64,000 nucleotides of DNA from Minisyncoccia bacterium. Lineage in GTDB: Bacteria; Patescibacteriota; Minisyncoccia; Phycocordibacterales; UBA1006. Of this stretch, positions 14,539-51,809 are shown in pieces. The DNA is taken from positions 40,058-104,057 of the forward strand of contig JBGATS010000002.1 of the NCBI GenBank assembly GCA_044229075.1, given 5' to 3'. Below the pieces are notes generated by a model. The model was given only the letters and a program-made list of their open reading frames with translations, was not told the DNA's origin and did not search any database. Positions within the stretch are counted from its first letter, which is position 1. Each line of letters begins with the position of its first letter. Both the position numbers and the translations under genes were made by a program.

Positions 14539-14593
14539 CATAACCATGATATACTTGTAATGTAATTAATAGATTAATACACCTTATATTGTT

Positions 14594-25334: not shown

Positions 25335-25406
25335 GGCCCTATCGTCTATCGGTTAGGACAGCAGGTTTTCATTCTGCAAAGCGGGGTTCGACTCCCCGTA
25401 GGGTCA
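25335..25406 (+). tRNA. tRNA-Glu (anticodon TTC); integration target of the downstream island
   Basis: Acceptor GGCCCTA/TAGGGTC, Glu-type D-arm TC-GTCTATCGGTTAGGAC, anticodon stem GCAGG/TCTGC with loop TTTTCAT, T-arm CGGGG-TTCGACT-CCCCG. Confidence 0.8.
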
Positions 25407-25460
25407 CAATAGAGAGAGCTAGTTCGAGCGCTCGAGAAGGGTCGAAACTAGCAAACAAAA

Positions 25461-25485
25461 GCAAGTCAGAAATGACTTGCTTTTG
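25461..25485 (+). terminator. Terminator downstream of tRNA-Glu
   Basis: gcaagtca-gaaa-tgacttgc followed by TTTT. Confidence 0.75.
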
Positions 25486-25517
25486 TTGTACTAAACTACA
25501 ACGATTTGTGATACAAT
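25485..25517 (+). promoter_or_regulatory. Candidate C-box-like palindrome (GTTGTA-N6-TACAAC) plus extended -10 (TGTGATACAAT) upstream of the controller gene
   Basis: Inverted repeat gttgta ctaaac tacaac at 25485-25502 sits at the -35 position relative to TGnTACAAT at 25508-25517. ATG at 25524. Confidence 0.4.
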
Positions 25518-25523
25518 ATTTTT

Positions 25524-25730
25524 ATGAAAGATGATGCTAAGAAATTGGGAGAAAATCTCAAAATGATCAGAACAAAGAAGGATATTACACAAACACAACT
25601 TGCGGATATCCTTGGAGTCGACAAGTCTTTTGTGAGTAATATTGAGAACGGAAAAACCAACCCTACTCTTTCAACTATTACTAATCTAGCTCAAGCGTTG
25701 AATGTGTCGACTAATGAATTATTAAAATAA
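25524..25730 (+). CDS. XRE-family HTH regulator, probable R-M controller (C) protein
   Basis: 68 aa with the Cro/C1-type HTH LKMIRTKKDITQTQLADILGVDKSFVSNIENGKTNP...LAQALNVSTNELL. It lies directly upstream of the restriction and methyltransferase genes. Confidence 0.65.
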   Translation: MKDDAKKLGENLKMIRTKKDITQTQLADILGVDKSFVSNIENGKTNPTLSTITNLAQALNVSTNELLK

Positions 25731-25734
25731 ATTT

Positions 25735-26715
25735 ATGGCAAGTACAAATTCTAAACAAATGACAACAGGAAAATCTTTTGAGTATGCTCTATTGATTTCC
25801 TTTGAAGAAAAATTGAAAGATAAAACAAATCTTGAGGTCGTAAAAAACTCTGCTTTTGATGTTGCAAAAAGTTGTTTTGATAGTGTTTCTAATCTTGAAA
25901 GAAGTGAGTATCTTCTGTCTGCAAGTTTTGCGGTTAACTTTTTAATGGATATAGAGCCAAGACTTTCAAATGATATTGGAAAAGACGATATTCTTCAACT
26001 TGAAATTTTATCAGATAACCATGGTAAAGCTGGTGATGTTCGTGATGTGCTTGCTATCAGATTACTTCAAAAATGGGAAATTGGTGTTTCTGCAAAGAAT
26101 AATCATATGGCAGTAAAACATTCTCGACTATCGTCGAGTATTGATTTTGGTGACAAGTGGTTAGGGTCCAAAGCTTCTAGTGAGTATTTTAATGAAATAA
26201 CTCCGATATTCTCTAGTCTTGAACAAATAAGAAAAGAAAGTGGAGCAAAAAAGAAGTGGAGTGAATTGGGTGATTATCACTCTACAATTTATGTTCCTAT
26301 TCTTAAAGCTTTTATAAAAGAACTAAAAAATCTGTACAAAAAAGATCCTGCAAGGGTTGCATCTAATCTGGTTGCTTACCTGGTTGGAAAAAAGGATTTT
26401 TATAAAGTAATCAAAGGGAAAAATTCTGTTGAAATTCATGCGTATAATTTAAACGGAACTTTAAATCTCCCATTTAAGGATGTTCAGCCTAAGTATAAAA
26501 CCCCAAAGGTCCCACTTCCTACTGAAATAGTTGATATAGATTTCAAGAATGGTAGTGACACAACAGCTATCGTAACAATGAATAATGATTGGACTTTGTC
26601 ATTCCGAATTCACAATGCAAGTTCAAGAGTTGAATCTTCTTTAAAGTTCGATATCAATCTTTTAAAATCACCAAATAAATTATTTAAAAACACGTTAACG
26701 ATAAGTAAAGATTAA
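25735..26715 (+). CDS. Putative type II restriction endonuclease of the C-R-M module
   Basis: 326-aa ORF between the C protein and the C5-methyltransferase, with 4-nt gaps. It has a possible PD-(D/E)xK-like segment GDVRDV...WEIGVSAK. The call rests mainly on position. Confidence 0.45.
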   Translation: MASTNSKQMTTGKSFEYALLISFEEKLKDKTNLEVVKNSAFDVAKSCFDSVSNLERSEYLLSASFAVNFLMDIEPRLSNDIGKDDILQLEILSDNHGKAGDVRDVLAIRLLQKWEIGVSAKNNHMAVKHSRLSSSIDFGDKWLGSKASSEYFNEITPIFSSLEQIRKESGAKKKWSELGDYHSTIYVPILKAFIKELKNLYKKDPARVASNLVAYLVGKKDFYKVIKGKNSVEIHAYNLNGTLNLPFKDVQPKYKTPKVPLPTEIVDIDFKNGSDTTAIVTMNNDWTLSFRIHNASSRVESSLKFDINLLKSPNKLFKNTLTISKD

Positions 26716-26719
26716 AATT

Positions 26720-27697
26720 ATGAAATTAGCTTCATTATTCACAGGTGCAGGAGGACTTGATTTAGGCTTTGAAAAAGCTGGTTTTCATGTTGTTTGGGCA
26801 AATGAGTATGATTCAACAATTTGGGATACATTTGAATATAACTTTCCAAAAACAAAACTCGACCGTCGTAGTATTGTAGATGTATCCCACTCAGATATTC
26901 CTAAAGTTGATGGAATTATCGGAGGTCCACCATGTCAGAGCTGGAGTGAGGCTGGGGCTGGTCGTGGAATAAACGATAAACGAGGTCAGTTATTTTTTGA
27001 TTATGTTCGATTACTAAAAGAAAGACAACCAAAGTTTTTCCTAGCTGAGAACGTTGCTGGAATTCTTCATCCGAAACATGCAGAGGCTTTTAATAATATT
27101 ATTAAATCATTTGAAGATGCTGGCTATGTAATATCCTGGAAATTATTAAACGCAAATGATTATGACGTTCCTGAGGACAGACTTCGTGTAATTATAGTTG
27201 GTTATCATAAAAAACTTAAAAAGAAATTTGAATTTCCTGAACCGCAAAAGTATAAACCCGTTCTTAAGGATGCAATTTTTGATTTACGATTAGCTAAACC
27301 TGCAAAAGATAAAAACAAAACAAATGGAGATGCCCTAAAAATACCAAACCATGAGTACATGATTGGTGGGTTTTCTACTATGTATATGTCACGAAATCGC
27401 GTTAGATCTTGGGATGAACCATCTTTTACTATCCAAGCTGGTGGTCGTCATGCACCACTACATCCACAAGCCCCAAAAATGAAATTCATATCTCAAAATG
27501 AAAGAGTTTTTGTTCCTGGTAAAGAAGATTTATATCGCCGTTTATCGGTACGAGAATGTGCAAGAATACAAACATTTCCCGATGATTTTATTTTTAAATA
27601 TCGTGATGTAGCTGATGGATATAAAATGATAGGTAATGCTGTACCAGTTAATTTTGCATACCATATAGCTAAGAAAATAATGAAAGATTTAAAATAA
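26720..27697 (+). CDS. DNA (cytosine-5)-methyltransferase, M.HaeIII-like
   Basis: Motif I LFTGAGGLDLGF, motif IV GGPPCQSWS, motif VI FLAENV and motif X IGNAVPVNFA are present. Long stretches (KNKTNG...NHEY.IG.FST..MSRNRVR.W.EP.FT.QA.GR...LHPQAP...YRRL.VRECAR.Q.FPDDFIF.Y...DGYKMIGNAVPVN) match my recollection of M.HaeIII (GGCC). Confidence 0.85.
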   Translation: MKLASLFTGAGGLDLGFEKAGFHVVWANEYDSTIWDTFEYNFPKTKLDRRSIVDVSHSDIPKVDGIIGGPPCQSWSEAGAGRGINDKRGQLFFDYVRLLKERQPKFFLAENVAGILHPKHAEAFNNIIKSFEDAGYVISWKLLNANDYDVPEDRLRVIIVGYHKKLKKKFEFPEPQKYKPVLKDAIFDLRLAKPAKDKNKTNGDALKIPNHEYMIGGFSTMYMSRNRVRSWDEPSFTIQAGGRHAPLHPQAPKMKFISQNERVFVPGKEDLYRRLSVRECARIQTFPDDFIFKYRDVADGYKMIGNAVPVNFAYHIAKKIMKDLK

Positions 27698-27708
27698 AGA
27701 ATAAAGAG

Positions 27709-28974
27709 CTAAATTTTAATTATTTTGTTTTTCAAAATCAACTCACTACTGATACATTCCAAGATAGATCTTTGTTCTAGCGGAGATCCTTCTTTTAGTA
27801 CAAATTTTGTATAATCCCTGAGATCAATTGGTTCTATTTTTTCTGTCTTTTTCTTACCCAAGAACATTGCTTGTAGTTTCTTGAACTTCTGTATCTCAAC
27901 ATCAAGTTTTGCTGTCAACTTAACCTTATTGATATTTAAGGTATCAACCATATCGAGTAGTGACTCAATTAGTTCAGTCTCGTTCAATGCAGGGTTCTTA
28001 CAATTCCGATCTTTGGCTTTTGTACATCGGTAATATACATGTCGATTTACTCCACCATTCAGTAGCTTCTTGAATTTTTCATCGGCAGTAATACCTGATC
28101 CACACACTCCACATTTCATAATTCTCGTAAAGGCAAATTCCTTGCCTTGTGATTTTATAGTCTGCGATTTGATAGAATTTCGTGTCTCATCAAATAATTC
28201 CTTGGAGATGATCGGCTTATGTTTTCCCTCATACCAGATACCAGCACCTTGAGGAAACTCAAAGCGACCATAATAGAAAGTATTATTTATAATTTTGAAC
28301 ACATTTCCTAGACTTAAGTGAAAACCTCTGTGAGTTTTGAAATTGAGATCATATCGTAACCATGCGTGTACTTTTGATACACTCCATTTTTCGTAGCTGA
28401 TCTTCTCAAATATCTGGCGTATGGTATCGGCTCGTTCTGGATCTATTTCCACCTCACACTTGGCTAATCGTTGGTTAGGCTTTCTATATCCTGTTGGTGG
28501 TTGTACTGGCCATAGACCCATTTCGCATCTCGCCCTCATTCCACGCTTTACATTGATACTTTTATTATCATTTTCTAGTTTTGCTTGAGAACACAGAATC
28601 ATCAACAAGAACTTATCACTTGGAGAATTCGTAAATGTCTGACCAAATGTTTTGATCTGAATTAGTTTTTTCTGATCCATTCTATCTACGAGTTTTCCAA
28701 GATCTCCTGCATTACGAGAAAGTCTATCGGGTGCCCATGTGATTATTCCGTTGAATATATCAGTATCGATATCTTTTACGATTTCCTCAAATACTGGTCT
28801 TTGTCCTGACTCTTTTGCACTATGTGATTCCTTCCGAATCTCAACTATGGTGAGATTTTCACGTTCTGCAATCTGTCTCATTTCCTTGATCTGAGAATCA
28901 ATAGAAAGAGCTTGTTTTTCTTCAGCTTCTGTTGATTTACGAGCATATAAGCAATATTTTAATGGTGCTTCCAT
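27709..28974 (-). CDS. Large serine recombinase (resolvase/invertase N-domain plus recombinase domain plus Zn-ribbon)
   Basis: N-terminus YARKSTEAEEKQALSIDSQIKEMRQIAERENL...WAPDRLSRNAGDLGKLVD holds the catalytic Ser region. A recombinase domain and a C-terminal CGVCGS...YYRCTK...C zinc ribbon follow. Confidence 0.85.
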   Translation of the reverse strand: MEAPLKYCLYARKSTEAEEKQALSIDSQIKEMRQIAERENLTIVEIRKESHSAKESGQRPVFEEIVKDIDTDIFNGIITWAPDRLSRNAGDLGKLVDRMDQKKLIQIKTFGQTFTNSPSDKFLLMILCSQAKLENDNKSINVKRGMRARCEMGLWPVQPPTGYRKPNQRLAKCEVEIDPERADTIRQIFEKISYEKWSVSKVHAWLRYDLNFKTHRGFHLSLGNVFKIINNTFYYGRFEFPQGAGIWYEGKHKPIISKELFDETRNSIKSQTIKSQGKEFAFTRIMKCGVCGSGITADEKFKKLLNGGVNRHVYYRCTKAKDRNCKNPALNETELIESLLDMVDTLNINKVKLTAKLDVEIQKFKKLQAMFLGKKKTEKIEPIDLRDYTKFVLKEGSPLEQRSILECISSELILKNKIIKI

Positions 28975-29009
28975 ATGTATATTAATGACAGACCAGTTGG
29001 TGGTGCATA

Positions 29010-29043
29010 GTCTATGCAGAACTATAAATACGTCGCATACTCG
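29010..29043 (+). repeat. 34-bp direct repeat copy 1 (GTCTATGCAGAACTATAAATACGTCGCATACTCG), promoter/operator-like, upstream of the MTase gene
   Basis: It matches 32 of 34 positions with the copy at 30151-30184. Both copies lie about 85-90 nt upstream of consecutive + strand genes. Confidence 0.7.
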
Positions 29044-29128
29044 AATTTAGTAAAATAGTTAGATATTTACATTTATTAAAATATATGTTAATATTTATTA
29101 AATTTTACTCATTTTAAATTTAATAACA

Positions 29129-30094
29129 ATGAAAAGTCAATTTATTAAAGATTACGGTACAACCGTAACACCAGAAATTTATATTAATGCCCTGCAAGGA
29201 CATCAGTACATCCCACAAGCAGATAAATGTATAGGTGATATTGTATCCAGAAAGCTAAACATTAGTCTTCCAGAAGATAAATTTTCTTTACTAGATGTAG
29301 GTTGTGGACCTAATAGATTAACTTCTCAATTTGCTGCTATTGTTGGCTCGGGAGTTGTTGGTATTGATATATCTGAGTCATTCATTAGGTTTTCAAATGA
29401 AAACTTGCCATGTTTAAAGCCTGGTAATATGCGTTCCAATCCTACCTTTTTTCAGATTGATTTTAGTAATACTAAAGAGTTAGGAATTCTTAAAGAGTCG
29501 CGACCTTTTGATGTTATTATTATGCATGGTGTTATGCATCATATTCATGGTAGTGATAGAATTTCGTTCATTCAAAATGCTTATGACTATCTTTACAGTA
29601 CAGGAACTCTCATTATTGGAGATGAATTTATAGCTGATTATGATTCAGATCAAACTCGTAAAGATAATATTGCAAAATTTTACTGCCATATTATTGATGA
29701 AGCTCGCAAAGGTGGATTCAATAAATTAGCTGAAGAAGAGGCAAAAAATCTTATTGACGATTACTTTTCAGGAACAGAATATGCCGGCTACGGAGGTAGT
29801 AAAGTGTTTGAATGTATTTATGAATTCTCTCAAAAGATTAATACTGAATTCTATACCAGAGGTATATTTGGTGAATTTACTAAACTCATTGATCTTATGG
29901 AAAAGAATATTATAAGATTAATAGAACATCTTGAGCCGAACACAACTTCCTTTAATCGAGGCGATTATAAAACTTCTATTAATAAGTTTGCGTCAGAAGT
30001 CAGCGAGTACGGATTTACACTTTCAGAAACCTATAGGATTGGTCCTGTGGATCAATTGGGTGGTATGGGGGTTTTGGTTTTCAAAAAGTATTAG
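29129..30094 (+). CDS. Class I SAM-dependent methyltransferase with extra C-terminal domain
   Basis: LLDVGCGPNRLT (motif I), VGIDIS, FDVIIMHGVMHHI and GTLIIGDEF are followed by an approx. 130-aa C-terminal extension of unknown function. Confidence 0.65.
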   Translation: MKSQFIKDYGTTVTPEIYINALQGHQYIPQADKCIGDIVSRKLNISLPEDKFSLLDVGCGPNRLTSQFAAIVGSGVVGIDISESFIRFSNENLPCLKPGNMRSNPTFFQIDFSNTKELGILKESRPFDVIIMHGVMHHIHGSDRISFIQNAYDYLYSTGTLIIGDEFIADYDSDQTRKDNIAKFYCHIIDEARKGGFNKLAEEEAKNLIDDYFSGTEYAGYGGSKVFECIYEFSQKINTEFYTRGIFGEFTKLIDLMEKNIIRLIEHLEPNTTSFNRGDYKTSINKFASEVSEYGFTLSETYRIGPVDQLGGMGVLVFKKY

Positions 30095-30105
30095 ATTACG
30101 CTTTT

Positions 30106-30140
30106 AACGGATTGTTCAATTGAACAATCCGTTTTTTATT
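30106..30140 (+). terminator. Terminator after the MTase gene
   Basis: Perfect hairpin aacggattgttcaat/tgaacaatccgtt followed by T6. Confidence 0.85.
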
Positions 30141-30150
30141 TTTAAATTTG

Positions 30151-30184
30151 GTCTATGCAGAACTAAAAATACGTCACATACTCG
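30151..30184 (+). repeat. 34-bp direct repeat copy 2 (GTCTATGCAGAACTAAAAATACGTCACATACTCG) upstream of the radical-SAM gene
   Basis: See copy 1. It contains the TAAAAAT/TATAAAT -10-like core. Confidence 0.7.
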
Positions 30185-30271
30185 TGAAGTCTTTTTAAAT
30201 ATAACACTTGATTTATTTATAAAGTATGATATAATAAAAACAAAATTTCGTAACTTGTAAAATAAATAAAA

Positions 30272-32200
30272 ATGAAAAATAAAATTCTAAATTTCGTCAA
30301 AATAACTGGAGTTTTGTTGCTTTTATTTGTAACATTTCTTTCACAGTTATCATTTACAGTATCCAAGTATATTGGGATACCTCCTAACCATGAGGCAGGG
30401 TCAGGAACATCTGCATGTGTAGAATATGAAATAGATGGAAAAATTTATCGAAACTATTCATCTGAAGCCATAAAGCTATATAATCTTGATTCTTGCAGAG
30501 TAGGAATACATTTGCCTGGATATTTTAATCCAAGTAATGGAGAAACAAGTCCAATGAGTACGCATTTCCCTAAAAAAGATATTCAATTTTGTTTCAAGTA
30601 TGTTGAATATATCTTACCTGTACAAGTAAGAGTTCCAACAAGAAAAAACCAAAAGGATTACTCTTTTAGGGTCATGGGAGTATCTGCTCCTCAATGGGTT
30701 TCAACTGGGGGTACTTCTATAAGTTACGCACTTGATAGTCGAACACCTTTTAGCTTGCAAAATGCCCTAAGGCTTGCCGTACAAGACGCACAAAGATCAC
30801 AAAGTGTTTGGGGTCTTTCTAATTGGTCTGACCCTGAAAATCTTCATGACTCAGTATTTCTCATGAATTATTTTGAAGAAGAAAAAGAAAACTTCGTTCA
30901 AAGAATTCGTGAAATACAACCACATGTACTATTTATCGGATCAATGACACTTTCATTTCCTGGTGCAGTTCAAATTGCTAAACTAGCAAAACAAGAACTA
31001 GGTAATGTGTTCGTTGTTCTTGGCGGTAAACATGCTATTGAAACCATCTATTGGAAAGATAATCAAGTAAATCACCATCCCGCTTCGCCAACATTATTAA
31101 TGCAAAATAAGTCTATACCAGAAGTATTTGACTTAGTGGTATCGGGTGACGGTGAAGATGTTGTAAAATCTATTGGAGAGATATTAGGTCAAGAAATTGT
31201 AAATCAAAAATGTATTTTACCTTTTTCTGAATATCAAAATAGTTTTGAAAAAACAAAAGGTAATTTTATACTTACTTGGTTTGAGGATGGGAAAATTAAA
31301 AGTTTTACTAAGCAAAAAAACCCACTTGAGCACGATCTACTTCCGTCACCAGTCTCTCTTTTTGGTGTAAATACATCTTTTCCTGTTTTTGGAAAAGAGT
31401 TTACAGCACATGTTTATAGTGACATGGGAAAAGGTTGCGTATTTAATTGTTTTTTCTGTTCCGAACGTTCTGCAATTAATGGTCCTATTGTGCAATCTGG
31501 TAGTCCGGCAAAAAGACTTTACACACAACTCAGAGATGCTTCTTTGCAAAATGATTCAATGAGTGCGTTTGTAGAGGATTCGATTTTACTTATGGGTTTA
31601 CCAAAACATTTAGATGAGTTTGTTTGTCTTCTTGAATCAAATCCTTTACCTATTGTATTTGGAGGTCAATTTACTATTGATAATTTACTTGATCCAAAGG
31701 TTCAGCCTTGTATTCAAAGATTATCTCAATTAGGATTAGTATATATTTATACTGGAATGGAAACTTCCAACGAAGAAATTGCCACAGAAATGAGTAAAAA
31801 CACCAAGAGGAAAGAAGGTTGGATTGAGCGAAACAAAAAAGCTGTCCAATTTGTAACAGATTTAGGCATTAAACACGGAGTAAGTATTCTTTGGGGATTA
31901 GGTGAGTCATCTCAAGATCGACAAAACCAACTTTCAATTATTGAAAGTTTCCAAAATAAATATAATAATCCTGTTTGTGTATCACCTAATTGGGCAACCC
32001 AACATCCTTTGTTTAATCAATCTCAGTTCATATACACTGATTGGGGTACTGATAAGGATAGTGATTACTTAAAATATTTCACGCAATTATTTGGAGAAGC
32101 TTCTGAAAGGTATTGTTTGAACAACATAAACCTTCCAGATACTAAAGAGTTAGAGTTTTTGATTTCAAAGTTTCGCCAATTAAATATTAAAAATATTTAA
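30272..32200 (+). CDS. Membrane-anchored B12-binding radical SAM enzyme (class B radical-SAM-like) with novel approx. 200-aa N-terminal domain
   Basis: N-terminal hydrophobic anchor ILNFVKITGVLLLLFVTFLS. A B12-binding-like segment HVLFIGSMTLSFPGAVQIAKLAKQELGNVFVVLGGKHA. The CVFNCFFC (CxxxCxxC) radical SAM cluster motif at about aa 390. Confidence 0.6.
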   Translation: MKNKILNFVKITGVLLLLFVTFLSQLSFTVSKYIGIPPNHEAGSGTSACVEYEIDGKIYRNYSSEAIKLYNLDSCRVGIHLPGYFNPSNGETSPMSTHFPKKDIQFCFKYVEYILPVQVRVPTRKNQKDYSFRVMGVSAPQWVSTGGTSISYALDSRTPFSLQNALRLAVQDAQRSQSVWGLSNWSDPENLHDSVFLMNYFEEEKENFVQRIREIQPHVLFIGSMTLSFPGAVQIAKLAKQELGNVFVVLGGKHAIETIYWKDNQVNHHPASPTLLMQNKSIPEVFDLVVSGDGEDVVKSIGEILGQEIVNQKCILPFSEYQNSFEKTKGNFILTWFEDGKIKSFTKQKNPLEHDLLPSPVSLFGVNTSFPVFGKEFTAHVYSDMGKGCVFNCFFCSERSAINGPIVQSGSPAKRLYTQLRDASLQNDSMSAFVEDSILLMGLPKHLDEFVCLLESNPLPIVFGGQFTIDNLLDPKVQPCIQRLSQLGLVYIYTGMETSNEEIATEMSKNTKRKEGWIERNKKAVQFVTDLGIKHGVSILWGLGESSQDRQNQLSIIESFQNKYNNPVCVSPNWATQHPLFNQSQFIYTDWGTDKDSDYLKYFTQLFGEASERYCLNNINLPDTKELEFLISKFRQLNIKNI

Positions 32201-32229
32201 TTGGTATTGTAAAGAGCAAGTGTCCTGTA

Positions 32230-33264
32230 TTAGGTCTTGCTCTTTTTTATTTCAATTAATTTTTGCACTAGTTTTTTAAAATCAGTAATCTTTGTTTTAC
32301 TTGTAAACGAAATACGAATTCCGGGATTTTTTGGTTCTGTAATGGAATACTTTTTATTATGAAAAACATGAATATTGTATTCTTTTAGGTTATTAATAAC
32401 TTTTTCGATATTTCTTTTCCACGGAATAGTTACTATATAATCTACCTGGTTTTGTGTTTTGTATACAGTAAGATCGTTTTCTTTGATCAATTTTTCAAGG
32501 TAATTTCTTTTTTGACGAAGAATTTTAGAATTAATTATTACTTTCTTTATATTCACTAAAGTTGAATATATTTCTCTTGAAAACTCTTTTGGATCAATAG
32601 ACCATTGATCCATGTTATATTTTTTCCTTAAAGATTTACTAATATAACAAAACCCAATATGAGGTTCTGCATTTATAAATTTAGAAGTAACCCCTAGATA
32701 AATATCTGAAATCTTTTTTGGGTTCACTGATAGTATACCAACTGACTGAGAACCATCAACTATTAGTATATTATGAGGGTTTATCTTTTTAATCTCTCTA
32801 TATAATTTTTCATTAACAAATCTTTCGCCTGTCATTCGTGATACATGCGAGATAATAATTATTGCGGGCTTTTTCCTGATTACTTTTTCTATATTCTCCA
32901 AGTTTACTTCTGGATTAAAAAGTGTGACATCCTTTTTAATAAAGGGAACCGATTTTTGTTTTACGTAATTTGGGTACGTTGTTTCGCGAACAGGAAGCTT
33001 ACCTGTTCCAAATAATGTTTTAAACCACTTAATCTCGTGATTACTTATAAATATATTATAGTCACTTTTTTCAAGTATTGGTTTTAGTGAAAAAATAAGA
33101 GATGTTGTTAGATTTTGAGAAAAAGACAAAGAATCGTTTTTACCTAAGTGTAAAAGCCTTTTTAGTAAAAAGCAAAAATCTTGAAAATTTTTAGTATAAT
33201 TTTTAATACTAGTGTTTTCTAACTGCTTAATCTTACGCCCGTCTGAATAATTTAAGTAAATCAT
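32230..33264 (-). CDS. Class V PLP-dependent aminotransferase / cysteine-desulfurase-like protein (divergent)
   Basis: Fold-type I class V pattern: IYLNYS..., ISNHEIKW (EH-like), AIIIISHVSRMTGERF, ILIVDGSQSVG and TSKF (candidate PLP lysine). It is very AT-rich and convergent with the radical SAM gene. Confidence 0.5.
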   Translation of the reverse strand: MIYLNYSDGRKIKQLENTSIKNYTKNFQDFCFLLKRLLHLGKNDSLSFSQNLTTSLIFSLKPILEKSDYNIFISNHEIKWFKTLFGTGKLPVRETTYPNYVKQKSVPFIKKDVTLFNPEVNLENIEKVIRKKPAIIIISHVSRMTGERFVNEKLYREIKKINPHNILIVDGSQSVGILSVNPKKISDIYLGVTSKFINAEPHIGFCYISKSLRKKYNMDQWSIDPKEFSREIYSTLVNIKKVIINSKILRQKRNYLEKLIKENDLTVYKTQNQVDYIVTIPWKRNIEKVINNLKEYNIHVFHNKKYSITEPKNPGIRISFTSKTKITDFKKLVQKLIEIKKSKT

Positions 33265-33420
33265 TATACAAATATTAACATATATTATCTCTATACAAAA
33301 CCATTAATCTATTTCATACTCGCATGACCTCTTAGCAAAACATATTTTTTGCGATATGATCATGGAATATTAACATAAAGTGTGTTAATATAAGATTATA
33401 ACTTAATAAAATTAAAATGA

Positions 33421-33615
33421 CCTAACCCCTTTGGTTTTCCAAAGGATATGGTTGCAAAACTCGCTACAAGATAAAAACCCCATCATCAGGGGCTATTACT
33501 TGTAGCGAGTCGTATCGGGAAACTGGTACGGGTAACTTCGGTTACCGATGCCTTGGTGGTGGGATTTTTGTTTACCACCAAAATATTATTAACCATAAAA
33601 ACTCGCTACAAAAAT
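33421..33615 (+). other. Highly structured non-coding region (possible cis-regulatory RNA) upstream of the gene at 33616
   Basis: Direct repeat AAAACTCGCTACAA at 33456 and 33597. The inverted copy CTTGTAGCGAG at 33499 can pair with either. Hairpins ggtaac-ttcg-gttacc and ttggtggtggg...ccaccaa lie between. This gives alternative-pairing geometry. Confidence 0.4.
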
Positions 33616-34128
33616 ATGGAAACAAAAACTCTTTCCCAAAAAGGAATGGGTTGGGCTAAAAAACATCCAATCCTTTCCGTCATTGGGGTCATTTTTATAA
33701 TAGGACTTATCGGCAGTATTGTTGATCCTTCTGAAAAGAAACCAGATGAGCCTAAATTACAAGAACAAGTTCAGCAGGTTGTGTTTGATGTTCCTTCGCT
33801 TATTGGGAAAAACATAGATGAAATTGAATTTATCTACGGCAAGGAAGAATCACAGGAACCGAATGAGTATCAAATTAATACCGTTACTGAATGGAGTAAG
33901 GAATTCAAAAGGGATGAATTTATTCTTCTTGTAACATATGACTACAAAACAAGAGTTGTTAAAGATTTCTTTGTTTCTGCAACTGACGAAATTTATGAGA
34001 GTAGAGATAAGGATCGAATGATGAGTATTACAAATACTAATAAATATGATTCAAAATATTCAGTATCATTTGTAAAAGCAATGACTGACTCAACTCGATT
34101 CACTGGAATACAGATTTCGCCAAAATAA
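33616..34128 (+). CDS. Membrane-anchored hypothetical protein
   Basis: METKTLSQKGMGWAKKHPILSVIGVIFIIGLIGSIV (TM) is followed by an approx. 130-aa soluble domain. The ORF-track start at 33553 overlaps the structured region, and the ATG at 33616 is preferred. Confidence 0.4.
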   Translation: METKTLSQKGMGWAKKHPILSVIGVIFIIGLIGSIVDPSEKKPDEPKLQEQVQQVVFDVPSLIGKNIDEIEFIYGKEESQEPNEYQINTVTEWSKEFKRDEFILLVTYDYKTRVVKDFFVSATDEIYESRDKDRMMSITNTNKYDSKYSVSFVKAMTDSTRFTGIQISPK

Positions 34129-34299
34129 AGTTATGGGTTTTCGTAGTCAAATTAAGGTTTGGATCAGAAAATTCTTTCATAAGAAAGATAATATATTCAT
34201 TATTAAAATGTGGATCAATATTCCCACCAAACCAAAACCACAGAAACCCTATATACCCAAAAAGCGATCGTTGAACGTATCGCTTTTTGATTATATGGA

Positions 34300-34884
34300 T
34301 TAATCATCATTATCTTCGTTTAAAAATTGAGCATTTATTTCATTTATCTTTTCTGACAAACTATTAAGCTGTTCGGTCACAATATTTTTTACTGCAGGAT
34401 CACTAAGATCGGTCATATCTAAAAATGGTGATTCTGGCTTCATTGGGTGGTATCGACCACTGTTATGCCGTAATGCAAATATGATTGCATTGAGGTCTCC
34501 TTCAAGGATTTTCTTCATGAGCATTGATTCTCCAATATCAAGAAAGTCTAATCTTCTTTCTTGTGGAGTATTAAAGAGGTTAATATCCAACATGCCATTT
34601 TTCGGCTTTTTCATAAAACGGTCATCGTTATGTGAAAGCCAGTATTTAATCATCCCTGAATCGCCTTGCTTGATCTTGTTGATAGTCTGACTAGTCGCCA
34701 AATCGTTCACATTGTTAATTCCTTGTGTCATACATTCTTCGTACTGTTTCTTGAAATCAGGATCTTCCTTAAGCCATCTAAAAATAGTTTGTCGGGAAAG
34801 GTTTAACTGTTTACAGACAGCACTAACAACAGGAGTATTCCTGAGTTCTTCGAGAAAAAGTTTTGATTTACGATGCTTTTTCAT
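34300..34884 (-). CDS. HTH protein, phage terminase small-subunit-like
   Basis: HTH VSAVCKQLNLSRQTIFRWLKEDPDF sits near the N-terminus and the C-terminus is acidic. It lies next to the ParB-methyltransferase gene, as in phage packaging/partition modules. The alternative start at 35001 would overlap the upstream gene by 134 nt. Confidence 0.4.
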   Translation of the reverse strand: MKKHRKSKLFLEELRNTPVVSAVCKQLNLSRQTIFRWLKEDPDFKKQYEECMTQGINNVNDLATSQTINKIKQGDSGMIKYWLSHNDDRFMKKPKNGMLDINLFNTPQERRLDFLDIGESMLMKKILEGDLNAIIFALRHNSGRYHPMKPESPFLDMTDLSDPAVKNIVTEQLNSLSEKINEINAQFLNEDNDD

Positions 34885-36169
34885 AGCTAATAATTTGTGC
34901 TTTGTTGCCAGCCAACTTTTCGTATCTACTGATGATGAGATCGCAGAATACTGGTTCCATTTCAATACCGTATACAACTCTTTGTAATTGTTCTGCTGCA
35001 ATTAACGTACTTCCTGATCCGAGAAAACTATCAAGGATAATATCGCCAGGGAGTGTGCACCTACGAATCGCTTTCTCATGTAATTCAACAGGTTTTGTCG
35101 TGGCGTGCTTATAATCTTTTCCGCTGACTCTTTTTGCAGTCCAGATATTCACTTCATCAATTGAATCATTACCCGTGGTAATTTCCTTGTTCATGATCTC
35201 GGTTAATCCTTGCTCTTTCTTTGAAAGATACGGATGACCTTTTGTTCCATAGATACATGGCTCATAACACTTATTGAACGCGACCAAGGGCGTTGGGTTG
35301 TGTCCATTTTTGACCCACAAACATACTCGCTTATTCTCAATACCTAATTCTCGATAGAGTACCTGAACTATCCAAATATGTTGTTCTGTATTCCAATAGA
35401 ATACATGTACATCTTTCTTTGAAACTGCCAAGGCGGCTGACATGCTTTGCTTGAGGAAACTTTTGTATTCCTCATCCGTTTTGTTGTCAGTAACAGTTCC
35501 GCCGTAGTTTTGTTTACCACCCAAACCTTTATCATAGTCTAGGTTGATATTGTAAATCGGATCAGAGTAGATCATGGAAGCCTGCTTGTCTTCAAACAAT
35601 CTTTTTAACACTTCAGGATCAGTAGAATCACCGCAGATTATCTTGTGTTTGCCAAGGATGACAATGTCGCCAGTTTTAACTCGGGGTTCTTTAATATTCT
35701 TAAGTTCTTTTGCAACATCAAAGTTCTCAACTTTGGTAGTGATGTTGTTATCCCAGATATTTGCAAGATCAGATTTAGGGAATCCGACTTCTGTGAGTAG
35801 TTCAATATCGAATTCTTTGAGTAGTTCAAAATCCCAATCACCACCAAGCGCATTACTAGAAATCAAATAGCCCTTAGCTTCTTCATCAGTGAGTTTTCTA
35901 TTAGGTACACGAACATCAATAATTTCATTGTCTCGACCGAGTAGCTTGAGAACTTTGATTCGTTGATGACCTGCAAGAATACTGCCATCCACATCAATTG
36001 CAGGTATTTCAACGAGGTTATATTTCTCGAAACTTCGTTTAAGAGCATCTAACTGGCTCGGGCTAATCTTCCGAGGGTTTTTAATGTGAGGCACAAGTTC
36101 AGAAACTGTTCGTGTTTCTGTGTGCCAAGTAAGTTTTGTAGACATAATGAAAACGCAAACCAATATCAA
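34868..36169 (-). CDS. ParB-like nuclease domain fused to N6/N4 DNA methyltransferase (phage-type)
   Basis: ParB/Srx N-domain VSELVPHIKNPRKISPSQLDALKRSFEKYNLVEIPAIDVDGSILAGHQRIKVLKLLG. DPIY (DPPY-like motif IV) SDPIYNINLD. A C-terminal ILDSFLGSGSTLIAAEQLQRVVYGIE (motif I; beta-class order). Confidence 0.8.
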   Translation of the reverse strand: MILVCVFIMSTKLTWHTETRTVSELVPHIKNPRKISPSQLDALKRSFEKYNLVEIPAIDVDGSILAGHQRIKVLKLLGRDNEIIDVRVPNRKLTDEEAKGYLISSNALGGDWDFELLKEFDIELLTEVGFPKSDLANIWDNNITTKVENFDVAKELKNIKEPRVKTGDIVILGKHKIICGDSTDPEVLKRLFEDKQASMIYSDPIYNINLDYDKGLGGKQNYGGTVTDNKTDEEYKSFLKQSMSAALAVSKKDVHVFYWNTEQHIWIVQVLYRELGIENKRVCLWVKNGHNPTPLVAFNKCYEPCIYGTKGHPYLSKKEQGLTEIMNKEITTGNDSIDEVNIWTAKRVSGKDYKHATTKPVELHEKAIRRCTLPGDIILDSFLGSGSTLIAAEQLQRVVYGIEMEPVFCDLIISRYEKLAGNKAQIISYEKAS

Positions 36170-36537
36170 GATATTGGCAACTAAATTAATAAAAAATCGG
36201 TTTGCGATATGTCCTTCCGCTGATACTATGTGACTACTTAGAGTCTGGTGACCATGTGCTAGAACAATGTTGCAAATAAAGTATATGATTTATTTGATAC
36301 AAAGTAAACAAAAAAGCATTATAAATAAGTACTTTTTGAGGAAAGTGTAATATGCACTGTATAGTGGATATTCGATTAAAAATTTGATTGACGGATTTTA
36401 GTTATCCACAGTTTTATTTTTCAGTATCAAGATCTGACAAAAAATTGTATCAGTTTTAGATAGTAAGGACTGTCACTTTTGTCACTTTTTTGATAGAATT
36501 ATAATACAAACATATTTTCACTTACTATAGAAAAACT
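36170..36537. other. AT-rich intergenic region with nested palindromes and DnaA-box-like motifs (candidate replication origin of the element)
   Basis: Nested inverted repeat CGCAAACC-AATATC-AA-GATATTGG...GGTTTGCG at 36175-36230. A perfect TTATCCACA at 36403-36411. An inverted near-copy AGTGGATAT at about 36362. A tandem GTCACTTTT x2 at 36471-36488. Confidence 0.35.
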
Positions 36538-37278
36538 ATGAATAATGAATTACTCAAAAACTGTAAAAAATTATTGAATGCTTACAAAGATGGTCTTTTA
36601 GGTCAAACAATAATGCCCGAGGATACAAACCCTGGTTTTTCCGATAGTGAGGCAGAATTAAGAATTGCATATTTTACTCTTCCTATGGCACTAAACTATC
36701 AACGTGATAGTTACAAACTTTGGGAAGCCGCCCTCAAGACTTTTAATGATCCCGAAACTAAATTTGTGTTTAATGTAGCTAAAGTATCCCAAGCACCTGA
36801 AGAAGATTTAAGAAATGCTTTGATGAAATATAAGCTTGCTTTACAGCCAAATAAACATATAAATACATGGAGGACTATTGCTCATACTATTAATGATAAC
36901 TGGGGTTCCTTTGTAAAATTCTTTGAGTCAAATATTGGTGATTTTCTCAATTTAAAACAGAAAGTCAAAGTAGAGCACAAGAAAGGATTCCCATATCTAT
37001 CAGGACCGAAGATTTTCAATTACTGGTCTTTTATTATGACGACTTATGGCGGTATAAAATTATCTAATCGTGACTGGATTGAAATTGCTCCAGATACACA
37101 CATAACTCAATGCTCTGTGAAGTTAGGAGCTATAACACCTGATGAAGCGGTGAGTCTTACCAAAGATCAAATTTCTGAAAGATGGCGGAAACTATTAATG
37201 GGAAGTAGTATTGATCCAATCGACATGCACTCGCCATTGTGGTTCTGGAGTAGGAATGGATTTCTATATAAATTATAA
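36538..37278 (+). CDS. HhH-GPD superfamily DNA glycosylase-like protein
   Basis: FPYLSGPKIFNYWSFIMTTYGGIKLSNRDWIEIAPDTHITQCSVKLGAI matches the helix-hairpin-helix plus I.VDTHV.R pattern of the EndoIII/MagIII family. An Asp-containing GSSIDPID follows. Confidence 0.45.
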   Translation: MNNELLKNCKKLLNAYKDGLLGQTIMPEDTNPGFSDSEAELRIAYFTLPMALNYQRDSYKLWEAALKTFNDPETKFVFNVAKVSQAPEEDLRNALMKYKLALQPNKHINTWRTIAHTINDNWGSFVKFFESNIGDFLNLKQKVKVEHKKGFPYLSGPKIFNYWSFIMTTYGGIKLSNRDWIEIAPDTHITQCSVKLGAITPDEAVSLTKDQISERWRKLLMGSSIDPIDMHSPLWFWSRNGFLYKL

Positions 37279-37440
37279 ATTTTTTAGTCTCTCGAGAAGG
37301 GTCAGAAAAATTATTAGAAAATACTAAAAATAACCTTACAGGGTAATGAATCAAAAGGTTCTATCTCGAAAAGGCTCACCAACTCGTGCTAGCACGAGAA
37401 GTATACAAAAACAGCCAATCTTTGGCTGTTTTTGTATCAT

Positions 37441-38382
37441 TTATTTAGTTTTTAATTCCATATAAATATCCTCAACCGCTTTTACGGCGTCACCTGCAGC
37501 AATATTATTTTGATGATAGTAAATATCGGTACAGTCACCAGCTGCCCAGATTCCAGACAGGGAAGAAGCTTGAGTCCACGGATTAATTTTTATATTTCCA
37601 AATTCGTTTTTATCTACTAAATTATTCAAATATCCAGTGTTTGGAATCTGACCAACCTCGACAAAAATTCCGTTTACGTTCAAAATTTCCTCAACATTAT
37701 CATTATTTTTGATTTTCAATCCGGTGACAAATTTTTCGCCAATTACCTCTATTGGTTGGGTATTTTTCATAATTTTCAAATTTGGGTGTTGAGATAATTT
37801 TTCAACAGTAATTTGATCAGCTTTGAAGTGATCGCTACGATTGATTAAATAAACCGTAGGGCAATAGGCAAGGAGTTGCACAGCAGACTCAAATCCTGCA
37901 TTTCCACCACCAATAACAGCTACGGGCATACCAGAAAACAATGGCCCATCACATGACGCACAATAGACAACACCACGATTTTCAAATTGATCAGCGCCAG
38001 GAATAGTGAGTTTGCGACGAGAACTACCTGTAGTTACCAGTATCGTTTTTGTGGTATAGATTTCCTTGCTTGTTACAACAGAAAAACCATTATCCGTTTT
38101 GGTCACAGATTCAACCATTTGTCCTGTGAAAATATCAAGAAATTCACCCTTGTAATATTCAACATGTGATTTCAAGTTCTTTGCCAAGTCTGCACCTGCA
38201 ATTTCAGGTGTTCCAATCCAGTTGTAGATGGTTTCTGATACGACAGATTGTCCACCAAATTCAGTAGTAATAATTGCAGTTGATAATTGTTTGCGTGCTG
38301 CGTATACAGCTGCTGCACATCCAGCAGGCCCGCCGCCGATGATGATAAGGTCGTAGGTTTTCATAGGGTAATAGTATAACAT
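37441..38382 (-). CDS. trxB: Thioredoxin reductase
   Basis: YDLIIIGGGPAGCAAAVYAA (FAD), CASCDG redox-active disulfide, VIGGGNAGFESA (NADPH). Confidence 0.9.
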   Translation of the reverse strand: MLYYYPMKTYDLIIIGGGPAGCAAAVYAARKQLSTAIITTEFGGQSVVSETIYNWIGTPEIAGADLAKNLKSHVEYYKGEFLDIFTGQMVESVTKTDNGFSVVTSKEIYTTKTILVTTGSSRRKLTIPGADQFENRGVVYCASCDGPLFSGMPVAVIGGGNAGFESAVQLLAYCPTVYLINRSDHFKADQITVEKLSQHPNLKIMKNTQPIEVIGEKFVTGLKIKNNDNVEEILNVNGIFVEVGQIPNTGYLNNLVDKNEFGNIKINPWTQASSLSGIWAAGDCTDIYYHQNNIAAGDAVKAVEDIYMELKTK

Positions 38383-50687: not shown

Positions 50688-51809
50688 TTACCGTTGAACT
50701 GGAATTGATACTGTTCTTTGGTATTGAGAAATATTCAAGACAATCCCAACAGATAATAACGCAAAGAGGAGCGCTGTTCCCCCGTGGGATACAAATACGA
50801 GAGGTAGTCCTGACAATGGGAAAAGTGCTATAGTTGATGCAATATTGAGAAGGGATTGTAATAATATTAATAAAATAATCCCAACTACAACAAATCGGTA
50901 AAAGGTATCGTGCGTTCTTAAGGCAATGACAAATCCACGAAGTCCGAAAAATAGATAGACAATGACTAGTCCTAGAGATCCAATAAATCCAAATTCCTCA
51001 GATACAACAGCATAAATCGAGTCTGAAAGTGGCTCGGGGAGGTATTTAAATTTTTGAACACTCTGTCCGAATCCGCGTCCAGTCATACCACCCGATCCAA
51101 CTGCAATGAGTGATTGCTGAATTTGATACGATGATCCTAGTGGATCATGCGCAGGATTCATGAATGTTGTAAGTCGTGAGAGGATATAAGGTCGTGTCAT
51201 GATGAGAATTCCACCGAGGAGTAATCCTACCAAGAATAGCATCCCAATATGTTTCCATTGTGCCCCAGACAAGAAATACATAATAATACAACTGATTGCA
51301 ATAATCATAAAAGTATCTGTGTCAGGTTGTGCAAGAAGAATTCCACCCACTACTCCTAATAAAACACATAATGGGAGCAAGGTGTTCCAGATTGTTTTTT
51401 CTTTTTTTTCAACATAAGCGAGCCATGCTGCATAATAGATAATGATAGTATATTTTAAAATTTCTGCAGGTTGGAATGAAATAAATCCAAGATCAATCCA
51501 ACGTGCAGCTCCACCGATTTTAACACCGACACCAGGTATAAGGACAATTGCCGTGGCAATAAGACTAATAATTGCCATAGGAAGCGCTGCCGTACGGAGA
51601 TACTTTAAAGGAATTTTTATCATACAATAGGCACCAACAATACCCCCAAAAAGACCTAAGATAACCTGTGTGAGAATTACTCGAGAAAGGTCACCTTTTG
51701 AACCTAATAAAGAAAGTGATGCCGAGAGAAAAAATAATAACCCGAAAACCACCAGAATTCCGGTCAAGATGAGAAATATTCTATCGATAGTAAATTGTTT
51801 TGTAGTCAT
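50688..51809 (-). CDS. ftsW: SEDS-family peptidoglycan glycosyltransferase FtsW/RodA
   Basis: A 10-TM SEDS pattern with the motifs GFQPAE and QTDLGT-like elements (ISFQPAEILK, AQPDTDTF). Confidence 0.8.
   Translation of the reverse strand: MTTKQFTIDRIFLILTGILVVFGLLFFLSASLSLLGSKGDLSRVILTQVILGLFGGIVGAYCMIKIPLKYLRTAALPMAIISLIATAIVLIPGVGVKIGGAARWIDLGFISFQPAEILKYTIIIYYAAWLAYVEKKEKTIWNTLLPLCVLLGVVGGILLAQPDTDTFMIIAISCIIMYFLSGAQWKHIGMLFLVGLLLGGILIMTRPYILSRLTTFMNPAHDPLGSSYQIQQSLIAVGSGGMTGRGFGQSVQKFKYLPEPLSDSIYAVVSEEFGFIGSLGLVIVYLFFGLRGFVIALRTHDTFYRFVVVGIILLILLQSLLNIASTIALFPLSGLPLVFVSHGGTALLFALLSVGIVLNISQYQRTVSIPVQR

Follow-up and report, generated by a model that had tools for sequence, protein, structure and literature searches.

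A probable mobile island at the 3′ end of tRNA-Glu in a Minisyncoccia genome, with a large serine recombinase and exchangeable defence cargo

Introduction

What occupies the DNA between the tRNA-Glu and trxB genes of a Minisyncoccia bacterium, and where exactly does the inserted sequence begin and end? The window analysed here, 64,000 nucleotides of contig JBGATS010000002.1 (GenBank assembly GCA_044229075.1), carries at 25408-37379 an island of 11,972 bp placed between these two host genes. A preliminary description, made from the sequence alone, had recognised an integrated island at this tRNA, had bounded it by a 13-bp direct repeat, and had suspected a composite or decayed element, with its recombinase gene internal and its restriction-modification module possibly a separate acquisition. 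Genomes of Patescibacteria (the candidate phyla radiation, CPR) are roughly 0.7-1 Mb in size, and to our knowledge few of their mobile elements have been characterised. By comparing the locus with related loci (numbered L002, L005 and so on) we reached good confidence that 25408-37379, with the junctions given here, is one copy of a mobile island family of Patescibacteria. This family is apparently widespread and undescribed: the literature that we searched held no description of it, nor of a function for the LOOT RNA that it carries, an absence that is limited to that literature.

An accessory island between tRNA-Glu and trxB

Judged by trxB, the nearest genomes are Patescibacteria metagenome-assembled genomes labelled Saccharibacteria, Nomurabacteria or Paceibacteria, with a best trxB identity of 84%. 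tRNA-Glu and trxB are often neighbours in these relatives, and the interval between them differs in every one, from ~50 bp to 6.7 kb, with unrelated genes inside. Homologues of the island genes were found between tRNA-Glu and trxB in none of 80 related, trxB-anchored loci, which marks the stretch as accessory DNA in a hypervariable spot. The first assessment had called everything from tRNA-Glu to trxB accessory; this stands for the island genes, but the last 61 nt before trxB are the native trailer and terminator of the tRNA. The lower GC content noted before was borne out, the island having 33.4% against 36.6% in the remainder of the window, which is below all 113 windows of the same size outside it (minimum 35.3%), and the stretch with the methyltransferase, radical S-adenosylmethionine (SAM) and pyridoxal phosphate (PLP) genes only 30.8%. 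Together with the empty-site alignment and the sister islands described below, this composition identifies a horizontally acquired integrative element at tRNA-Glu, as first proposed. The features of the island are collected in Table 1.

Table 1. Features of the island and of its host flanks, in window coordinates
Feature	Position	Strand	Details
tRNA-Glu(UUC)	25335-25407	+	ARAGORN; Rfam gives 25335-25406; host gene, 3′ end …CCCCGTAGGGTCAC forms the left half of the attachment site
Predicted crossover core TCAC	25404-25407 and 37376-37379		
Island left terminus (attP-derived arm)	25408-25443	+	23-nt spacer AATAGAGAGAGCTAGTTCGAGCG, inverted box, 13-mer box 1
Inverted box GAGCTAGTTCGAG	25416-25428		Within the left terminus
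13-mer box 1 CTCGAGAAGGGTC	25431-25443		Direct
Putative regulatory region	25455-25523	+	Hairpin (~25455-25488), GTTGTAC…TACAAC inverted repeat, -10-like GATACAAT; upstream of the HTH gene
HTH_3 regulator, 68 aa	25524-25730	+	Pfam; backbone gene at island left end
HaeIII-family restriction endonuclease (slot A)	25735-26715	+	RE_HaeIII 2.2e-98; PADLOC REase_II
C5 cytosine methylase (slot A)	26720-27697	+	DNA_methylase 8.1e-99; PADLOC MTase_II
Large serine recombinase, 421 aa	27709-28974	-	Resolvase + Recombinase + Zn_ribbon_recom; presumed integrase
Conserved recombinase upstream region	28975-29043		97% to L082 and L123-L125; ~96.5% to L083/L084, L126 and L127
34-nt direct repeat D1-1	29010-29043		
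Slot B cassette	29044-33288		4.2 kb, between recombinase and LOOT
SAM methyltransferase (slot B)	29129-30094	+	
34-nt direct repeat D1-2	30151-30184		94% to D1-1
B12-binding radical SAM protein (slot B)	30272-32200	+	
Aminotran_5-like PLP enzyme (slot B)	32230-33264	-	
34-nt direct repeat D1-3	33289-33322		71% to D1-1
LOOT RNA	33419-33546	+	Rfam RF03000, 88.3 bits (gathering 46.4), model positions 1-121/121
orf33553	33553-34303 region	+	One predicted transmembrane helix; true start probably internal
orf34133, 56 aa	within 33553-34303	+	
TerS-like HTH protein	34300-35001	-	PHROGs; backbone operon
ParB-like/N6_N4 DNA methylase fusion	34868-36169	-	Pfam, PHROGs; backbone operon
Promoter-like TGTCACTTTTGTCACTTTTT (slot C)	36470-36493	+	
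orf36538 (slot C)	36538-37278	+	Sub-threshold AGOG/HhH-GPD-like match, E 0.013
Island right terminus (unit), 91 bp	37289-37379	+	Box 2, variable segment, conserved AACCTTACAGGGTAATGAATC, box 3; ends GGCTCAC
13-mer box 2 CTCGAGAAGGGTC	37291-37303		Direct
Box 3 CTCGAAAAGGCTC	37365-37377		Direct; ends 2 nt from the joint
Native tRNA-Glu trailer (host DNA)	37380-37440	+	CAA, palindrome CTCGTGCTAGCACGAG (37383-37398), terminator (37403-37437); displaced by the insertion

Junctions and the reconstructed empty site

The left junction reads GGGTCAC/AATAG at 25407/25408, at the 3′ end of tRNA-Glu, and the right junction GGCTCAC/CAACT at 37379/37380. When the tRNA gene is joined to 37380-37470, the product aligns across the joint with the island-free loci L079 (131 nt, 78%), L031, L005 and L073, in all of which C-A(A/T)…GCTAGCACGAG and a terminator stand directly 3′ of tRNA-Glu. 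Since the sequence now beside trxB aligns with what follows the tRNA in island-free relatives, 37380-37440 is the tRNA's own trailer. The search for an empty tRNA-Glu site that had been proposed earlier thus succeeded as a contiguous alignment in distant island-free relatives, but not within the species: exact-protein look-ups of the window flank genes gave no conspecific empty site, only one sample's contigs matched, and these end before the junctions or cross attR unbroken.

Both ends of the island were delimited by its sister islands in other hosts. At the left end, four islands (the window, L083, L085 and L123) have tRNA-Glu genes whose T-stems differ (cgggg, ccggg, cggag), and a common 23-nt spacer, AATAGAGAGAGCTAGTTCGAGC(G/A), directly after …GGGTCAC. 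The left terminus as a whole is nearly identical in the window, L083, L085, L086, L123 and L126, and L090 and L091 have related versions. Island-free relatives do not have it behind their tRNA-Glu, where the sequence is unrelated and neither spacer nor 13-mer is present (L002, L006, L012, L031, L051). At the right end, homology between islands runs through the terminal 91-bp unit and ceases after …GGCTCAC in L082, L083, L085 and L123 (L082 represents a right end only), and L123 and L124, which are 99.99% identical over 10 kb up to the GGCTCAC end, differ beyond it. The switch between host-specific and island-specific sequence therefore falls at TCAC in the four islands with both ends available and at the right end of the fifth, L082.

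Only TCAC is common to both junctions (up to TCACAA in L123). The G/C difference between GGGTCAC and GGCTCAC and the first base after CAC bound the exchange, which places the crossover within TCAC; we think it reasonably probable that this tetranucleotide is the exact crossover, in which case the precise 2-nt exchange would lie inside it. We propose that the large serine recombinase would integrate the island at the extreme 3′ end of tRNA-Glu(UUC), by recombining a host site (tRNA …GTAGGGTCAC / CAACTCGTGCTAGCACGAG…terminator) with an element site (…CTCGAAAAGGCTCAC / AATAGAGAGAGCTAGTTCGAGCG…). As the crossover would fall inside the shared TCAC, the tRNA would be kept intact, and its own trailer and terminator would be moved 12 kb off, beside trxB. 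On this model the excised circle should carry the joint …CTCGAAAAGGCTCAC/AATAGAGAGAGCTAGTTCGAGCG… and the vacated chromosome the sequence …CCCCGTAGGGTCAC/CAACTCGTGCTAGCACGAG…. Around the joint, the two sides of the reconstructed element site (CTCGAcTAGGCTC / GAGCTAGTTCGAG) form an inverted repeat, though an imperfect one. The spacing of half-sites, compared by eye, proved too weak an argument for placing the sites of the recombinase.

The 13-mer boxes lie inside the island

The 13-mer CTCGAGAAGGGTC had been taken as the edge of the island. It occurs exactly twice in the 64 kb (boxes 1 and 2), and matches with at most one mismatch number three, where dinucleotide-preserving shuffles led us to expect 0.02; the third, at 51680 with one mismatch, lies antisense within an open reading frame (ORF) of 373 aa and is taken as chance, whilst a fourth copy with two mismatches is box 3. 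The pair also flanks sister islands, exactly in L083/L084, whereas the left copy of L085 and L123 has one mismatch, so the repeat is a feature of the family and not a chance match. The earlier view that it is not random therefore stands. Its use as a boundary does not, as the resulting coordinates fall 24 nt and 76 nt inside the junctions at the tRNA 3′ end and at GGCTCAC; from the aligned junctions, the 13-mers, with their first bases 24 nt and 89 nt inside, appear to lie within the island rather than at its boundary and not to be a duplication of the target made on integration.

Could the 13-mer nevertheless be the common core of attL and attR? The island would then span 25431/25444-37290/37303, the spacer and the 91-bp unit would be host DNA, with the unit a small host gene split at its 5′ end, and the circular joint and empty site would read …TTTTTTAGTCT-CTCGAGAAGGGTC-GAAACTAGC… and …TTCGAGCG-CTCGAGAAGGGTC-AGAAAAATT…, respectively. 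A core of 12-13 bp falls in the range for some serine integrases, the repeat is exact, statistically unexpected and kept at both ends of sister islands, and the two copies in L085, L086 and L123 disagree at position 6, as they should if the left part of each copy preserves its origin. Locus L006 (~14540-14580, minus strand) has moreover a degenerate tRNA-Glu 3′ fragment (TTCGGAAATCAAAGTCTTAGGGTCACC), to which a box resembling the 13-mer and then the unit are joined through a short spacer without an intervening island. However, an intact tRNA-Glu followed by the spacer and a complete unit, or directly by a complete unit, was seen in 0 of ~45 tRNA-Glu loci, the unit goes along with the island (L123 and L124 have identical units), homology between hosts ends exactly at its 3′ end, and the host-type trailer comes after the unit, not after the 13-mer. 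The arrangement in L006 is equally explained by an island that collapsed between its two 13-mers. We therefore regard a 13-mer core as unlikely and retain the crossover in TCAC. Taken by itself, the L006 fragment looks like such a collapsed island, later displaced by another tRNA-Glu insertion.

Four copies of a box with the outline CTCGA-N4-G-N-TC, one of them inverted, cluster around the element attachment site (boxes 1 to 3 and the inverted box), and those adjoining the joint form the imperfect inverted repeat. An outline of the box, CTC…AGGGTC, recurs in the tRNA-Glu 3′ end (CTCCCCGTAGGGTC), and the host trailer has a related sequence, CACGAGAAG (37393-37401). Most likely, the boxes would be bound by the recombinase or by an accessory factor, or are fossils of earlier junctions.

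The right-end unit and its solo copies

A search with nhmmer found ~17 related copies of the 91-bp unit in other loci, often two per locus, where they separate single accessory genes and always lie within the variable zone of tRNA-Glu and trxB. The promoter-like TGTCACTTTTGTCACTTTTT precedes several of these solo units, the 57-aa end gene in L085 and orf36538 in the window, and L028 and L029 have pieces of close recombinase homologues in the vicinity of tRNA-Glu or trxB. Given their position in the variable zone, the shared promoter motif and the recombinase fragments, the units in relatives are best read as what is putatively left of the right ends of decayed islands, which later insertions would have moved away from the tRNA. 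Such outward displacement of remnants has been reported for the tRNA-seeded islands of Prochlorococcus (10.1101/2020.12.28.424599).

A quite different view takes the unit as an independent family of structured small RNAs with its own promoter and terminator, the 13-mer being the conserved 5′ end of the RNA. About 17 homologous units exist, often several per locus, some with the promoter-like motif before them and some with a terminator after, and the window unit with its terminator folds with z = -6.2. Much of this fold energy stems, however, from the host terminator. The consensus fold of 15 units is weak (-1.33 kcal/mol) with no compensatory pair, and the only plausible closing stem does no better than shuffles (399 of 500 reach it) and is broken in divergent copies. 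The unit has no match in Rfam. Its copies are confined to the tRNA-Glu/trxB zone, and the promoter motif before some of them is the one found before the end gene of the island, which fits island-end remnants; we give the small-RNA reading very little weight. A structured RNA of the riboswitch kind was rejected on the missing Rfam match, the lack of covariation and the unrelated nature of the genes downstream (HD domain, FabH-like, KAP NTPase). We also rejected an integron-like cassette array with the units as attC sites, there being no tyrosine recombinase and the units being direct and non-palindromic without a conserved hairpin. A scan of IMG/VR for units returned only chance matches in GC-rich phages.

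Paired solo units were observed in L006 (13341-14541), L029 (14480-15393), L045 (16421-18694) and L007 (5625-5714 and 11868-11957), and the genes between paired units encode an HD domain protein, a FabH-like protein and unknowns. The two copies in L007 are inverted and flank the trxB-ftsZ segment, an arrangement that could underlie the differing orientations of tRNA-Glu and trxB among genomes.

The recombinase and its island family

The recombinase has the three domains of a large serine integrase (PF00239, 1.6e-20; PF07508, 8.1e-11; PF13408, 1.2e-08) and matches the integrase family phrog_95 (1e-62). More than 100 protein clusters 80-98% identical to it occur across Patescibacteria (Nomurabacteria, Paceibacteria and other groups), whilst its identity to phage integrases in INPHARED is only ~25%, and by sequence it weakly matches the structures of the SPbeta (YokA/SprA) and TP901-1 integrases. 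Domain searches of the island ORFs found neither a tyrosine integrase (Phage_integrase-type domain) nor a transposase, and the recombinase is the enzyme that would presumably catalyse integration.

Six look-ups of the loci of recombinase homologues define the family described here. Sister islands in different hosts (L083/L084, L085/L086, L123-L126) carry recombinases 96-97% identical to that of the window, and the recurrent order of genes in the family, taking the recombinase strand as plus, begins with a 57-aa gene and variable cargo, followed by an S24/helix-turn-helix (HTH) repressor, a 139-aa gene, the ParB-methylase, the TerS-like gene, a ~500-aa DEAD-like gene or other cargo, the recombinase, variable cargo on the opposite strand, the 68-aa HTH gene and tRNA-Glu. 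Backbone identity is 86-88% at the nucleotide level, and between the window and its sisters amino acid identity is 78-90% for the HTH protein, 96-97% for the recombinase, 50-61% for the methylase and 30-46% for the TerS-like protein. Compared in this way, the backbone consists of the HTH regulator, the recombinase with its upstream region, the LOOT RNA, the TerS-like gene, the ParB-methylase and the 91-bp unit, interrupted by three variable slots. Homology in the recombinase upstream region stops at 29043 or within a few bases of it.

In the window the recombinase lies 2.3 kb from the junction, with the HTH, endonuclease and methylase genes in between, a position that had been put down to decay. 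The family argues otherwise, as it has a cargo slot between the recombinase and the tRNA-side end: in L090, whose recombinase is 79% identical, this slot is empty and the recombinase gene ends 125 nt from tRNA-Glu with the same boxes between. On IMG/VR contigs, more distant homologues (43-58% identity) are found immediately upstream of tRNA genes on the minus strand (tRNA-Asp, -Ser, -Gln, -Asn or -Trp), which suggests that the recombinase clade as a whole uses tRNA 3′ flanks.

This family context also bears on whether site-specific integration took place at all. The region could instead be a flexible one, exchanged by homologous recombination in its flanks, with the recombinase as cargo or a DNA invertase; several sources do label the enzyme "DNA invertase Pin-like", the orientation of tRNA-Glu relative to trxB varies among genomes, and the interval between the two differs in every relative (0.05-6.7 kb, unrelated genes). 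Yet the same island with the same ends stands beside tRNA-Glu where the other flank is not trxB, namely TsaD or DUF5667 in L083 and FecR or a CHASE2 cyclase in L123, and its backbone identity (86-88% nucleotide, 96-97% amino acid) is far above that of host genes. The enzyme carries integrase-type Recombinase and zinc-ribbon domains, unlike small invertases, and related recombinase clades track other tRNAs. Exchange through the flanks is thus highly improbable, and integration by the recombinase is the reading we keep.

Other arrangements around close recombinases were seen in passing. In L141-L147 a recombinase 82% identical to that of the window is followed by a 702-aa N6_N4 methylase, a ResIII/YagJ helicase, a reverse transcriptase, the 13-mer and tRNA-Glu, and as contigs with the identical recombinase (L144, L146) have a different gene next to it, cargo varies between strains. 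The first 2,324 nt of L084 (1-2324) are an unrelated GC-rich end and the locus is identical to L083 from 2325 on, so it is probably a chimeric assembly and not a second host context.

Backbone genes, the LOOT RNA and the state of this copy

Domain and system searches (Pfam, PADLOC, PHROGs) confirmed most of the genes first listed, namely the HTH, endonuclease and methylase genes, the recombinase, the methyltransferase, radical SAM and PLP genes, the TerS-like gene and the ParB-methylase. Two labels were weaker than first given: the HhH-GPD protein is one sub-threshold AGOG match, and the "membrane proteins" come down to one helix in orf33553, whose start is probably internal because 33553-33581 is the LOOT terminator.

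The putative regulatory region before the HTH gene is conserved in L083, L085 and L123, and may act in regulating it. Its inverted repeat GTTGTAC-N-TACAAC (25486-25503), just 5′ of the -10-like box and conserved in sister islands, is a likely operator of the 68-aa HTH protein. In L083, L085 and L123 the systems that follow this HTH (78-90% amino acid identity) are of type I and of MmeI type. As it is conserved beside differing types of restriction-modification (R-M) system, it is a backbone regulator of the island and not a system-specific C protein. Homologues of the ParB-methylase and TerS-like genes stand in the same order in L082, L083, L085, L089-L091 and L123.

LOOT adjoins the recombinase in L085 (8913-9035), L089 (2076-2195), L091 (1847-1969) and further loci, with weaker matches in L062, L097, L098, L106, L115 and others. 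In relatives it is divergent to the recombinase gene and 150-190 nt upstream of it, and it also occurs near distant homologues targeting other tRNAs. We considered LOOT as a guide RNA of the recombinase, comparable to the bridge RNAs of IS110, and rejected this, as it has only 4-5 nt loops and conserved single-stranded motifs, with no variable loops.

The window copy has an intact recombinase ORF and two complete ends. It is without the S24/HTH repressor module and the 139-aa, ~500-aa and 57-aa end genes of its relatives, and no small ORFs replace missing genes in 36170-36537; it is, in short, cargo-rich and regulator-poor. A promoter scan gave 57 matches against 51 expected and was thus uninformative. 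The suggestion of a composite or decayed element was partly right, inasmuch as regulator and end genes of relatives are missing and a cassette is inserted between 34-nt repeats.

Cargo slots

Homology to sister islands ceases at 25730 and resumes at 27712, so only the endonuclease and the C5 methylase (25731-27711) fill slot A. The R-M module had been thought a separately acquired unit; this applies to these two genes as slot cargo, but not to the HTH gene, the presumed C gene of the module, which belongs to the backbone. Elsewhere, in Parcubacteria RAAC4_OD1_1 (L048, 19796-20770), a C5 methylase 79% identical to that of the window lies ~9 kb from trxB, with no HaeIII-type endonuclease in the examined stretch.

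Slot B is bracketed by the three 34-nt repeats, which enclose the methyltransferase gene and the radical SAM/PLP pair. The first of them is part of the conserved recombinase upstream region, from which it follows that the cassette sits within the recombinase-LOOT intergenic region, and that this region is repeated before each plus-strand unit. The radical SAM/PLP segment (30212-33286) is 96.65% identical over 3,075 bp to a non-island locus from another sample (L148, 3747-6818), which has housekeeping genes (YceG, RNase T, KhpA) around it and no island backbone. PADLOC assigned the pair to no system apart from weak mad2 and DndA matches, and fused radical SAM-PLP proteins of ~990 aa also exist (P0216, P0228, P0230). 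For P0121, a radical SAM protein 100% identical to that of the window, a look-up returned no record. The cargo of relatives comprises Thoeris (L082), an MmeI-type enzyme (L083), type I R-M with AbiJ (L085), and CBASS with type I/IIG R-M (L123). This suggests that the slots mostly hold defence genes and that these may be swapped among islands.

Discussion

On the strength of these sequence comparisons, the junction positions, the family, its modular layout and its association with tRNA genes can be taken as shown. Several points nonetheless weigh against a mobile island with the junctions proposed here. The relatives that supplied the empty sites (L031, L079) have no more than 56-62% trxB identity, and none is conspecific; the flank by which L124 diverges from L123 is only 22 nt long, at a contig end; the identity of the spacer among hosts could partly be ascertainment, if only hosts with a suitable site receive the island; and the inverted repeat of the reconstructed element site is centred ~3-5 nt to the right of the TCAC core. 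A scan of IMG/VR for the pattern of the attP joint brought to light neither an excised circle nor an attP, a recombination directionality factor was not identified either, and as the window copy is without the repressor and helicase-like genes, its mobility may be lost.

If the reading holds, a single recombinase family would deliver exchangeable defence modules to one set place in the chromosome, giving defence genes a concrete path by which to move within Patescibacteria, and would offer a set of serine integrases with simple, predictable targets at tRNA ends. LOOT, an orphan Rfam motif, gains a genomic home beside the integrase gene of these elements. The locus also illustrates that a direct repeat, even if perfect, conserved and placed near each end of an island, is not necessarily an integration duplication, as the comparative mapping of the junctions shifted the boundaries by 24 and 76 nt. 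One may speculate further, though we hold this to be rather doubtful, that the island represents a satellite-like, Patescibacteria-wide class with a clade of tRNA-3′-end integrases, in which the boxes and the 91-bp terminus would control the direction of recombination or the choice of site, and LOOT would regulate the recombinase or a lysogeny-like switch.

The closest parallels are prophages and islands with large serine recombinases (phiC31, Bxb1, TP901-1, A118, SPbeta SprA, SCCmec CcrAB), which share the three-domain recombinase, its place beside the attachment site (in the basal relative L090, though not in the window), a very short common core, and host and element sites that are unrelated save for partial half-site mimicry. 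Here, in contrast, the target is a tRNA 3′ end with its trailer and not a protein-coding gene, with related clades using other tRNAs, a cargo slot stands between recombinase and attachment site, and tRNA-end-like boxes, a 91-bp terminus and LOOT beside the recombinase are added. Classical tRNA islands with tyrosine integrases (Islander-type) and tycheposons are alike in integrating next to a tRNA and in their variable cargo (10.1101/2020.12.28.424599; PMC4383910). The model of tRNA-seeded island growth comes from the tycheposon paper (10.1101/2020.12.28.424599), and is matched here by degenerate remnants that have accumulated distal to the tRNA (solo units in L006, L029 and L045, and pieces of the recombinase in L028 and L029). 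Unlike in classical tRNA islands, there is no tyrosine integrase here, and the tRNA gene is left whole rather than being cut and then repaired by a long copy on the island: the island's distal end, …AAAGGTTCTATCTCGAAAAGGCTCAC, is a loose mimic that agrees with the tRNA 3′ end, when compared by eye, in 14 of 25 positions, and the repeat that is exact, the 13-mer, is not part of the tRNA sequence.

Relatives of the island also resemble defence islands and phage satellites (phage-inducible chromosomal islands, PICI, and P4-type hotspots), in that an integrase and a divergent S24 repressor are combined with helicase-like and TerS-like genes, capsid genes being absent, and in that their slots hold Thoeris, CBASS, R-M, AbiJ or an MmeI-type enzyme. 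They differ from PICI-like satellites in the Patescibacteria host and the serine integrase, and of that gene set the window copy has only the TerS-like gene and the integrase. Lastly, the left end recalls HaeIII-type R-M systems with a controller, as a HaeIII-family endonuclease and a C5 methylase lie directly downstream of a small HTH gene, but in this family the HTH gene also accompanies type I and MmeI-like systems and behaves as an island regulator placed before the cargo slot.

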